Below, in pieces: positions 22,603 to 24,288 of a DNA stretch of 64,000 nt. The translations under genes and the position numbers were made by a program. Numbering within the stretch: position 1 is the first letter of the stretch; each line of letters begins with the position of its first letter. The notes under the pieces were generated by a model. The model was given only the letters and a program-made list of their open reading frames with translations, was not told the DNA's origin and did no database searches. The stretch is from a virus (taxonomy: Duplodnaviria > Caudoviricetes). Where the stretch lies: positions 160,001-224,000 of the IMG/VR virus record IMGVR_UViG_3300031134_000001. One strand, written 5' to 3'.

Positions 22603-24288
22603 ATGTTTAACCAACGTTTCGGCTTTACCCGTCCAGGCACCCAGAACATCGCAACTACCTGGGTCAGATCTTTCAACAGTCTCATCGCAGGTCACTCAGA
22701 CCTGCCGGATGTGTTGGTGTTCGCCCACGACCACAACACTAAACCGGATGGCTCGCCGTTGACGTCGAACCCAACCGCACGACCTTTCATTCAAACCGTG
22801 GGTGTGGCTGTTGGCGCCAACGGCGAGTGGGGTTTGGCGATCTTTGCACCACACGGCATGCTGGAATCCGCGCCGCAGAGCGAACGCGTTGACTACATGA
22901 ACAGCAGCCCGTCAGTGATGTCAGCCATTTACAAGCTGGCGGCCGAACGTAATGTCGAAGCGACAGCGATCCACTTTAACAGTGTGCTTGTCGACACGGT
23001 CGGTCTCGATCCAAACGACCCTGAGGTAGTGCGTCGGCTGCTGTCGGCGCTGCTCAACCGCGCAGAGAGCAGTCTGGGTCGTGTTCTGGCTGAACGGGAA
23101 AAGGAAGCATTGCCAGGCATGATCGACTTCAATGAAGCTCGTGGTCGCGTTGTGCTCGAACAGAACGTAAGTTACGAAAATCCAGTGCTGCGTGATCTCC
23201 TCGGCAAGATCGTCCGTAACGACTACGTCTTTACCTTGACTGTCAAAGAACCACCACGCCGTGACAGCGTGGTCGAGCCGGTGATAACGACGTTACTCAA
23301 GGTCAGCGGCTACGTTGACTTTAAGCGTGCGCCAACCGAATCGAATCCAGGCCAGCCATGGAACATCCAACCTCTGCGCTACTTGCCAGAATTCATCATT
23401 ACCGATATCGACAACGGGAGCGGTGAAATGACGGCGATGCATGAACAGCAAGCCACCATGTTCGCTATTGCCATGGTGGCGCAATACATGCGTGCGGGTC
23501 GGTGGACGGAGCGCCACATGGCGCACCTGAAAACCCACAACGAGAAAGACTTGACGTTGTTGTTCGATACTCAGCAGCGCGAAGTATTCATCCGTGAAAA
23601 ACACCAGAACGGTTACGCCGCCATGGCAGACCTGGCCAGCAAAATCCTGTCTCCTGGCTTCCTGCTGTCGATTGATATCCCGCAAAATCCAACCGGCAAC
23701 ATGGAACTCAGGACACTTTTCGAAGTTGTGGTGCGCCACTCGACGTCGATCGTATCGATGTTCAATGATGTCGCAGCTAGCCTGGGTCGGGACGACTACT
23801 ACGGTCGTTATGCTAATCCTAACGACCTTGGTAACGCCTACTTGCCCTCGGTGATGGTGCCGATGGGTTCCATGGTTGTTGTCGAGAAAGCTGGTAAGTT
23901 CGAGTGTGATGTTCGTCAGATGGACACGCTGCGCGCTTTGCATGTTTGCGAAGAAGCAGTTAGTGCGGGCAGTAACCGCGTGAACATCCAGAAGATGGCA
24001 TCGAATTATCTGGACCTGTTCTATCTGCAACATACGTCCAACGCTCATCGTGGTCAGTCTGGTCCATCGACGTTCGGTCGCGGCGGCCACATGGCTTACG
24101 AGCACGCAGCCTTTCTGAAGCATGTGAGCATGACGCCGGAATACTACAATGTGGCGCATCGCACAACGTTCAATGGCCAGTTTGTCAACCTCGTGGTGAA
24201 CTTGTTGGGTTCCAGCGGTTTGGACATCCGAACAGACGACCAGACGAAGGCTTTGCTGACGGCTGACCATCAGGCGATCGTGCTGTAA
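22603..24288 (+). CDS. chimallin (ChmA, phage nuclear shell)-like protein with short C-terminus
   Basis: Colinear matches to recalled 201phi2-1 gp105: FTRPG, PVLRDLLGKIVRNDYVFT, VSGYVDFKRAP, FIITDI, LSIDI, DVRQMDTLRAL, AHRTTFNGQFV...SGLDIRTD. Confidence 0.8.
   Translation: MFNQRFGFTRPGTQNIATTWVRSFNSLIAGHSDLPDVLVFAHDHNTKPDGSPLTSNPTARPFIQTVGVAVGANGEWGLAIFAPHGMLESAPQSERVDYMNSSPSVMSAIYKLAAERNVEATAIHFNSVLVDTVGLDPNDPEVVRRLLSALLNRAESSLGRVLAEREKEALPGMIDFNEARGRVVLEQNVSYENPVLRDLLGKIVRNDYVFTLTVKEPPRRDSVVEPVITTLLKVSGYVDFKRAPTESNPGQPWNIQPLRYLPEFIITDIDNGSGEMTAMHEQQATMFAIAMVAQYMRAGRWTERHMAHLKTHNEKDLTLLFDTQQREVFIREKHQNGYAAMADLASKILSPGFLLSIDIPQNPTGNMELRTLFEVVVRHSTSIVSMFNDVAASLGRDDYYGRYANPNDLGNAYLPSVMVPMGSMVVVEKAGKFECDVRQMDTLRALHVCEEAVSAGSNRVNIQKMASNYLDLFYLQHTSNAHRGQSGPSTFGRGGHMAYEHAAFLKHVSMTPEYYNVAHRTTFNGQFVNLVVNLLGSSGLDIRTDDQTKALLTADHQAIVL

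Follow-up and report, generated by a model that had tools for sequence, protein, structure and literature searches.

The stretch of DNA examined here (the window) comprises 64,000 nucleotides, bases 160001 to 224000 of the 271,026-bp IMG/VR record IMGVR_UViG_3300031134_000001, which carries direct terminal repeats and is rated 100% complete. Because the record harbors a gene for a full-length phiKZ-type major capsid protein (MCP) at genome positions 241014 to 242897 (PF25620, 529 bits) and a core block encoding DNA polymerase, the nuclear shell protein, and the nvRNAP (non-virion RNA polymerase) beta subunit, the source phage is a chimallivirus, i.e., a nucleus-forming jumbo phage. Our analysis concerns one gene of the window, whose product, here named P0001, is a second chimallin beside the canonical shell protein ChmA of the same genome and belongs to a conserved family without the arms that connect ChmA tetramers to each other. 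The gene stands last in a unit that leads from a promoter-like motif, CTATATCACT, via genes for an AAA+ ATPase and a 141-amino-acid (aa) protein to the paralog and a terminator (Table 1). Its open reading frame (ORF) had been delimited exactly in an initial annotation made from the sequence alone, and a ribosome-binding site, AAGGA, lies 8 nt upstream of its ATG.

As a single sequence, P0001 is inconspicuous. A tblastn search of 50,697 phage records gave no match, the models of Pfam, PHROG, and NCBIfam yielded nothing significant, and phmmer against the PDB listed chimallin at an E value of 0.76, level with ribosomal L17 noise. BLASTP against the ChmA of the same genome was also nonsignificant (E = 0.26), and P0001 and its relatives P0006, P0007, and P0011, each searched singly in IMG/VR, found no match. 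The ESM Atlas offered no usable match and only a poor model of P0001. Single-sequence AlphaFold prediction was useless (predicted local distance difference test [pLDDT], 36) and was replaced by an alignment-based model.

When 1.84 billion representatives were searched exhaustively with phmmer, the small family to which P0001 belongs emerged. It consists of one close relative, P0002 (86% identity to P0001), and eight clusters at 16 to 21% identity, all with lengths of 510 to 569 aa. A profile built from an alignment of 11 family sequences (A1) matched the solved chimallins of Goslar (E = 3.6e-24), phiPA3 (PhuN; E = 1.9e-15), and 201phi2-1 (E = 1.3e-13), with profile positions 17 to 537 corresponding to chimallin chain residues 68 to 586 and thus to nearly the full length. 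Significant homology to characterized chimallins was therefore obtained at the level of the family profile only. The newer Pfam model PF25677.3 is precomputed as matching relatives. A further homologue search with A1 added a single protein, P0013 (612 aa), and a search for related loci with a second alignment, A2, recovered only the genome G002 described below.

The AlphaFold2 model calculated with A1 was of moderate confidence (pLDDT, 65; predicted template modeling score, 0.74), with values below 50 at both termini. In a Foldseek search of the PDB with this model, the top nine matches were all chimallins (E = 3.4e-22 to 2.3e-18; TM scores of 0.63 to 0.70), and the tenth had an E value of 0.08. 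VIA-align superimposed the model on chimallins over 448 to 470 residues with Z scores of 24.2 to 25.3 and root mean square deviations of 3.7 to 4.6 Å. The next matches were GNATs, including AtaT, with Z scores of at most 6.8, a likeness that has already been published for the C-terminal domain of ChmA (Laughlin et al. 2022, Nature 608:429). P0001 is thus modeled as a two-domain chimallin-fold protein with an N-terminal domain and a GNAT/AtaT-like C-terminal domain. The description of the product as chimallin-like in the initial annotation is borne out by the profile match and by both structure comparisons, including the Foldseek and AlphaFold check that had been suggested there. A fold search of BFVD returned 18 significant matches of 590 to 691 aa, mostly unnamed; those that could be placed (Eowyn and RSF1) are ChmA, and none of the 18 has the length typical of the family (510 to 570 aa).

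Residues G201, P203, R205, D207, T267, W301, D358, G422, D436, R438, D441, L443, R520, and F527 are common to the family and ChmA, while W253, M296, G299, G352, N362, and D471 form a signature of the family that is not found in ChmA. The conserved acetyl-coenzyme A motif of GNATs (Q/RxxGxG/A) is absent from the alignment of the family and ChmA, and a reading of the protein as a GNAT enzyme was dropped for this reason.

The Pfam chimallin model recognizes one gene in the genome, canonical chmA, with the DNA polymerase gene two genes upstream and the nvRNAP beta gene directly downstream. The chmA/nvRNAP arrangement also occurs in phiKZ, Goslar, RAY, RTH11, Eowyn, SA002, and AH06, and the initial annotation was right to state that chmA normally lies beside DNA polymerase and nvRNAP genes. 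The closest match to the ChmA of this phage is that of Burkholderia phage FLC9, at just 25% identity. The paralog lies outside the core block at a distance of 95 kb from canonical chmA, which fills the slot beside nvRNAP beta. Since the core block is occupied in this way, P0001 is a second chimallin in this genome and not a displaced chmA.

Phylogeny agrees with this assignment. In an unrooted maximum likelihood tree of 14 ChmA proteins and 11 family members, the two groups were split with support of 100/100, and branches within the family were as long as those within ChmA. As the tree is unrooted, it fits an ancient duplication and a fast-evolving offshoot equally well. With this deep separate clade, an identity of P0001 to ChmA of about 14%, and canonical chmA in its place, the notion of a displaced chimallin gene in the initial annotation had to be abandoned, while its proposal of a second chimallin-like protein holds, as canonical chmA was found elsewhere in the same complete genome. 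The ChmA fold is present, and the paralog is not the sole chmA; these were the two points on which the proposal could have failed. Long antisense frames lie opposite both genes: one of 693 aa opposite chmA (genome 86498 to 88579, minus strand), which exceeds the 673 aa of chmA, and one of 339 aa opposite the paralog (window 23293 to 24312, minus strand).

A second genome, G002 (IMGVR_UViG_3300044719_000253; 226 kb, 83% complete), likewise encodes a canonical ChmA (72.6 bits) and, some 94 kb away, the family member P0004. The A1 profile matched a single place, the canonical ChmA, in each of FLC9, 201phi2-1, phiKZ, Goslar, RAY, and AgentSmith. The fragment G001 (48% complete, with ChmA), which is uninformative on this point, had no A1 match. 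Wherever this could be tested, a family member was accompanied by canonical ChmA. Since six cultured chimalliviruses build their shells without such a protein, the paralog is an accessory one.

The family is apparently undescribed. In the full-text literature, a search for chimallin paralogs or second chimallins revealed only one sentence, which mentions a low-homology duplication of chimallin in one phage genome from the human oral cavity (PMC12625630), and a 2026 review treats ChmA and unrelated accessory proteins only. The published case resembles ours in that an uncultured chimallivirus has a further chimallin gene of low homology; unlike ours, it comes as a remark on one genome that gives no tails, family, synteny, or regulation. 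Neisseria is the predicted host of the uncultured oral chimalliviruses in that study, and together with the G+C content of about 52% across the present genome this provides a lead to Neisseria as a host candidate.

In ChmA, the N-terminal segment (NTS; residues 48 to 61) docks on a neighboring protomer inside the tetramer, whereas the C-terminal segments CTS1 (residues 590 to 611) and CTS2 (residues 622 to 631) contact protomers of neighboring tetramers (Laughlin et al. 2022). Deletion of the NTS or the CTS abolishes self-assembly of ChmA in vitro, and the N-tail (residues 1 to 47) is dispensable (Laughlin et al. 2022). We compared P0001 with gp105 of 201phi2-1 (NC_010821) on this basis. P0001 harbors FTRPG at residues 8 to 12 and GLDIRTD 531 residues further on; gp105 has FTRSG at residues 54 to 58, inside the published NTS, and GLQITMD at residues 575 to 581, at the end of the C-terminal domain, with a spacing of 521. 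The colinear match between these motifs that the initial annotation had noticed is therefore real, both in occurrence and in order.

The two ends of the protein differ from those of ChmA in length. After the terminal GL.I..D motif, all 11 family members have 11 to 20 residues, compared with 48 to 59 in 14 ChmA proteins, so that CTS1 and CTS2 are missing; the initial annotation had described most of the C-terminal lattice segments as lacking. Its estimate of the shortness was correct in substance and slightly off in number, since P0001 ends 16 and not about 14 residues after GLDIRTD; for ChmA, it had given about 45 to 50 residues, and gp105 has 50. Before the NTS motif, family members have 2 to 41 residues and ChmA proteins 53 to 114. 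The absent Q-rich N-tail had escaped the initial annotation, which had located the NTS-like motif without interpreting it as such. This motif, F-[ST]-[RK]-x-G, aligns with FTRSG of 201phi2-1 and with LFSRG (residues 58 to 62) in the ChmA of this genome. Judged by sequence, the family is thus devoid of the Q-rich N-tail, CTS1, and CTS2 and retains a motif at the position of the NTS. In most family members, a short K/R-R-P motif could be what is left of the beginning of CTS1. The first 17 residues of P0001 and P0002 are identical; most of the 78 differences between the two proteins fall into residues 17 to 80, the most variable part, and residues 401 to 440. We conclude that this second chimallin of the phage is conserved and has no inter-tetramer arms.

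The promoter-like motif upstream of the unit connects the paralog with chmA. The 10-mer CTATATCACT occurs in the genome in 11 exact copies and four copies with one mismatch, accompanied by an A/T-rich CTAAAT..TTT element upstream. All 15 are on the plus strand and none on the minus strand, compared with about 0.26 exact copies per strand expected by chance. Thirteen of the 15 are intergenic, and most of these precede a start codon by 36 to 97 nt (in one case by 159 nt); within the window, copies start at positions 3721, 20961, 36844, 38935, and 47395 (plus strand). Canonical chmA is preceded by one copy at a distance of 97 nt. In the contigs of P0004, P0002, and P0006, an exact copy likewise precedes the paralog unit, about 52 nt before its first gene, and in G002 and a third genome ChmA has one upstream. 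The 10-mer is thus kept unchanged even in metagenomic phages that are only distantly related. In jumbo phages encoding multisubunit RNA polymerases, the motif that can be found bioinformatically was an early promoter of the virion RNA polymerase wherever this was tested (PMC7598289). By analogy, CTATATCACT is probably the early (virion RNA polymerase) promoter of this phage group, and from its position before both chmA and the paralog unit we infer that the paralog is co-expressed early with chmA.

Table 1. Features of the paralog locus and canonical chmA (window positions unless marked as genome positions)
Feature	Position	Strand	Size or sequence	Evidence or remark
Mini-MCP gene	20296-20880	+	194 aa	PF25620 PhiKZ_MCP, E = 5e-20, profile positions 144-315 of 635
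Palindromic hairpin	20902-20934	none	13-bp stem	Between mini-MCP gene and promoter-like motif
Promoter-like motif	20945-20970	+	CTAAA..(A/T-rich)..CTATATCACT	10-mer at 20961-20970, 53 nt 5' of AAA+ gene
AAA+ ATPase gene, classical clade	21014-22102	+	362 aa	First gene of unit; PF00004, E = 8.4e-10
ORF	22116-22541	+	141 aa	Second gene of unit; no significant family match
Tail-less chimallin paralog P0001	22603-24288	+	561 aa, ATG start	ORF, family profile, and fold
NTS-like N-terminal peptide of P0001	22606-22638	+	Residues 2-12, FNQRFGFTRPG	Motif alignment
Last core motif and tail of P0001	24217-24285	+	GLDIRTD (residues 539-545) and 16-residue tail	CTS1 and CTS2 absent
Intrinsic-terminator-like hairpin	24292-24335	+	14-bp stem, 8 GC pairs, T-run	4 nt past paralog stop
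Downstream gene (candidate ADP-ribosyltransferase)	24388-24924	+	178 aa	Outside unit; ESM Atlas ADP-ribosylase cluster PF26816, score 0.95
Canonical chmA (P0003)	86573-88594 (genome)		673 aa	PF25677, 77 bits; phrog_4795 "nuclear shell protein," E = 3.8e-43

Our preferred reading, to which we assign a probability of roughly 40%, is that the paralog is a minor subunit of the nuclear shell that receives inter-tetramer arms and cannot donate them. Produced together with ChmA, it would join the growing shell, where its NTS-like peptide and core would place it in a tetramer and allow it to accept the arms of its neighbors. Without CTS1 and CTS2, it would donate no arms to other tetramers, and the lattice around it would be locally less cross-linked. 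Such a weak spot could provide an edge or growth point, or else a docking site or gate. We favor a minor subunit because a connector-like peptide and the core needed by a member of the tetramer are kept, because the promoter motif of chmA is shared, because canonical ChmA is always present where testable, and because engineered ChmA without the CTS is known to enter the shell: green fluorescent protein (GFP)-tagged ChmA without CTS1 and CTS2 was still incorporated in vivo, with no significant difference from the full-length protein (P = 0.19) (Laughlin et al. 2022). The capper, pore, or edge roles put forward in the initial annotation would be consistent with this anatomy. Prediction of a complex between the paralog (with A1) and the C-terminal 62 residues of the ChmA of this phage gave no verdict, neither for nor against binding.

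Several observations weigh against a role in the lattice. Shells are formed by the six cultured chimalliviruses without such a protein, and the identity of the paralog to any ChmA is just about 14%. The NTS was assigned from a short motif whose surroundings align poorly and have a pLDDT below 50 in the model, and the early promoter was assigned by analogy only. Furthermore, the paralog changes quickly. Between this genome (G000) and G002, identities amount to 58% for ChmA, 45% for the AAA+ ATPase, 36% for the short MCP-like protein encoded upstream of the unit (mini-MCP), and 25% for the paralog, so that the paralog has diverged much faster than ChmA. In comparison with the locus L004 of an 86%-identical relative, the ratio of nonsynonymous to synonymous substitution rates (dN/dS) of the paralog is 0.26 (dN, 0.071; dS, 0.27; 560 codons, no disruptions), above that of most neighbors and unexpected for a subunit fitting a conserved lattice. 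The mini-MCP gene has a value of 0.32, and other neighboring genes range from 0.007 to 0.2; the value of 0.57 for the 141-aa ORF comes from an almost invariant gene with too few changes to judge. The paralog is thus under purifying selection, yet markedly less constrained (or more adaptive) than its neighbors.

Rapid divergence, lost tails, and very low identity to ChmA would also be expected of a decaying duplicate without a function of its own. We consider this highly improbable: all 11 clusters have an undisrupted frame and conserved lengths of 510 to 569 aa, invariant motifs are held in common with ChmA, and the clade is as deep as that of ChmA itself. Conservation of the promoter, ribosome-binding site, and terminator, as well as the dN/dS of 0.26, likewise speaks against decay.

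The same anatomy, an acceptor surface without donor arms, could instead belong to a soluble regulator or chaperone. Here, the tail-less core would bind free ChmA tails in the cytoplasm and buffer or time polymerization, or it would nucleate the first tetramers, and it would not become a lasting part of the lattice. The inability of tail-deleted ChmA to self-assemble (Laughlin et al. 2022) fits this idea, as do the promoter motif common to chmA and the paralog unit and the accessory status of the paralog, which cultured chimalliviruses do without. However, ChmA of other phages self-assembles unaided, the retained NTS-like peptide suits membership in a tetramer better than pure sequestration, and fast divergence sits badly with tight binding to the well-conserved tails of ChmA. 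On balance, a soluble regulator appears rather unlikely to us.

The genes around the paralog were as described in the initial annotation, i.e., an AAA+ gene, a hypothetical gene, and a putative ADP-ribosyltransferase gene, the last of which is an ESM Atlas lead without support from hidden Markov models. The nearest solved relatives of the AAA+ ATPase are Afg2, VCP/Cdc48, Rpt, and Bcs1, and it shows 42% identity to FLC9 gp106 and 30% to its homolog phiKZ gp208. Its Walker A motif reads GPPGTLKS, with a G-to-L exchange, compared with canonical GPPGTGKT and GPPGNGKS in two relatives; Walker B is YEDID or YEDMD in all three, and a motif resembling the second region of homology, ALLRQGR, is present. 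The AAA gene adjoins the paralog in four divergent lineages, including the one described here, and is missing from L004. The degenerate Walker A motif and the loss of the whole gene in L004 suggest that it may be decaying in this lineage. As a homolog of phiKZ gp208, the ATPase also occurs in phages without the paralog. Of the 141-aa ORF between the two genes, L004 has a 98.6% identical version, and none turned up in the more distant loci.

Adjacency to an AAA+ gene in four divergent lineages could indicate that the paralog works apart from the ChmA shell, for instance, as a homo-tetrameric scaffold or adaptor for the ATPase or with a re-purposed GNAT-like domain, and the signature residues of the family would suit such an independent assembly. 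An obligatory coupling of the two proteins is weakened by the occurrence of gp208 homologs without the paralog, the deletion of the AAA gene in L004, and the degenerate Walker A motif in this genome, and a GNAT-derived activity is at odds with the absence of a conserved acetyl-coenzyme A motif. A function independent of ChmA therefore seems improbable.

Upstream of the unit, the mini-MCP is a paralog of part of the phiKZ-type MCP, the full-length version of which is encoded elsewhere in the genome. Short MCP-like genes (194 to 278 aa) lie near the paralog in five lineages, i.e., in this one and in the contigs of P0002, P0004, P0005, and P0009. In cultured phages, the mini-MCP mostly matches genes annotated as major capsid or head genes, and in FLC9, AgentSmith, RsoM3USA, and RSL2 an unannotated gene. 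Two truncated paralogs of self-assembling proteins, mini-MCP and the tail-less chimallin, thus lie close together. Downstream of the unit, the 178-aa protein shares 168 features with the ADP-ribosylase cluster of the ESM Atlas and is 60% identical in the distant relative L003 and 99% identical in L004; against the local Pfam collection, it had no match at E values up to 5. It is possibly a Mod-like ADP-ribosyltransferase. In relatives, genes with an Acb2/Tad1-hairpin domain (precomputed PF24729) lie beside mini-MCP and paralog (L003, 8373 to 8774; L034, 7350 to 8270), and the L034 protein is a fusion of this domain with a mini-MCP-like N terminus. These neighbors hint at an antidefense neighborhood. 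In view of the Acb2/Tad1-hairpin genes in relatives and the ADP-ribosylase lead here, the paralog region resembles early regions for accessory functions or host takeover. A DHH-family phosphoesterase gene (16703 to 17677, plus strand; phrog_4771, E = 1.4e-62) lies farther upstream in this region, and the window also contains a cluster of seven tRNA genes (30730 to 34837, plus strand; Tyr, Ser, Gln, Asn, His, Thr, and Leu).

Such surroundings would suit a decoy, in which a nonpolymerizing mimic of chimallin and the mini-MCP as a mimic of the capsid protein titrate a host immune sensor or protease or interfere with the shell or capsid assembly of a co-infecting chimallivirus. Besides the accessory-like locus, the adjoining truncated paralogs of two self-assembling proteins, the ADP-ribosyltransferase-like gene downstream, and the Acb2/Tad1-hairpin-domain genes in relatives, one of them fused to the mini-MCP N terminus, the fast evolution of the paralog relative to ChmA and its neighbors is in line with this, as is the raised dN/dS of both paralog and mini-MCP (0.26 and 0.32). 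On the other hand, limited literature searches revealed no defense system known to sense ChmA, and a decoy would need neither the strictly conserved core motifs nor the NTS-like peptide nor the promoter it has in common with chmA. Highly expressed truncated ChmA protomers did not disrupt the shell of 201phi2-1 (Laughlin et al. 2022), which argues against simple poisoning and weakens the suggestion of the initial annotation that the protein is a poison for competing phages. We regard a decoy as rather unlikely; fast divergence, the accessory-type surroundings, and the pairing with mini-MCP nevertheless keep both a decoy and a soluble regulator in play.

Returning to the preferred reading of a minor shell subunit, comparison with known systems shows both what the paralog has in common with shell proteins and what sets it apart. 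With ChmA/PhuN (201phi2-1 gp105, phiKZ gp54, phiPA3 gp53, and Goslar; PF25677, phrog_4795), it shares the modeled two-domain fold over about 460 residues (Z scores of 24 to 25), the motifs G.PVR.D, GY.D, D.R..D.L, and terminal GL.I..D, an NTS-like peptide before the first helix, occurrence in a chimallivirus, and the promoter motif preceding the gene. In contrast to ChmA, to which it is about 14% identical, its own sequence is undetected by the curated Pfam and PHROG models, it has no Q-rich N-tail, CTS1, or CTS2 (16 compared with about 50 residues), it evolves about twice as fast, and it is a second copy, located 95 kb from the DNA polymerase/chmA/nvRNAP block and placed in its own clade (100/100). 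The closest counterparts in anatomy (Laughlin et al. 2022) are engineered ChmA without CTS1 and CTS2 and phiKZ gp54 clipped by protease, which comprise the protomer core and the NTS without inter-tetramer arms, much like the paralog with its NTS-like peptide. Whereas these are laboratory constructs or processing products of one ChmA, the paralog is encoded separately by a conserved and possibly ancient gene that has a signature of its own. Its proposed role resembles that of ChmB, ChmC/Imp6, and PicA/Imp1, accessory proteins thought to equip the lattice for docking, export, and import; the literature consulted does not present these as chimallin paralogs.

Annotation by single sequence or by curated hidden Markov models misses the paralog, and surveys that count chimallin matches may overlook it or take it for the shell gene. 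The phage nucleus has been viewed as built from one lattice protein, ChmA, to which unrelated accessory factors are added. A natural chimallin that has a putative intra-tetramer connector and no inter-tetramer arms could make local discontinuities, which bears on how the closed, cross-linked lattice grows, opens for capsid docking, and passes macromolecules. Taken further, the shell might be a two-component structure, in which a low-stoichiometry, acceptor-only chimallin, co-expressed with ChmA and possibly serviced by the adjacent AAA+ ATPase, makes programmed weak points for growth, for capsid docking and DNA packaging, or for gated transport; this extended version is speculative and, in our estimate, unlikely to hold in full. 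If it is true, heterogeneity of the shell would be genetically encoded and would not stem solely from proteolysis or unrelated accessory proteins. If the paralog is instead a decoy or a regulator, it would be the first example of a phage shell protein duplicated for a nonstructural purpose. The paralog also represents a ready-made reagent for studying how arm valency controls the geometry of the lattice.

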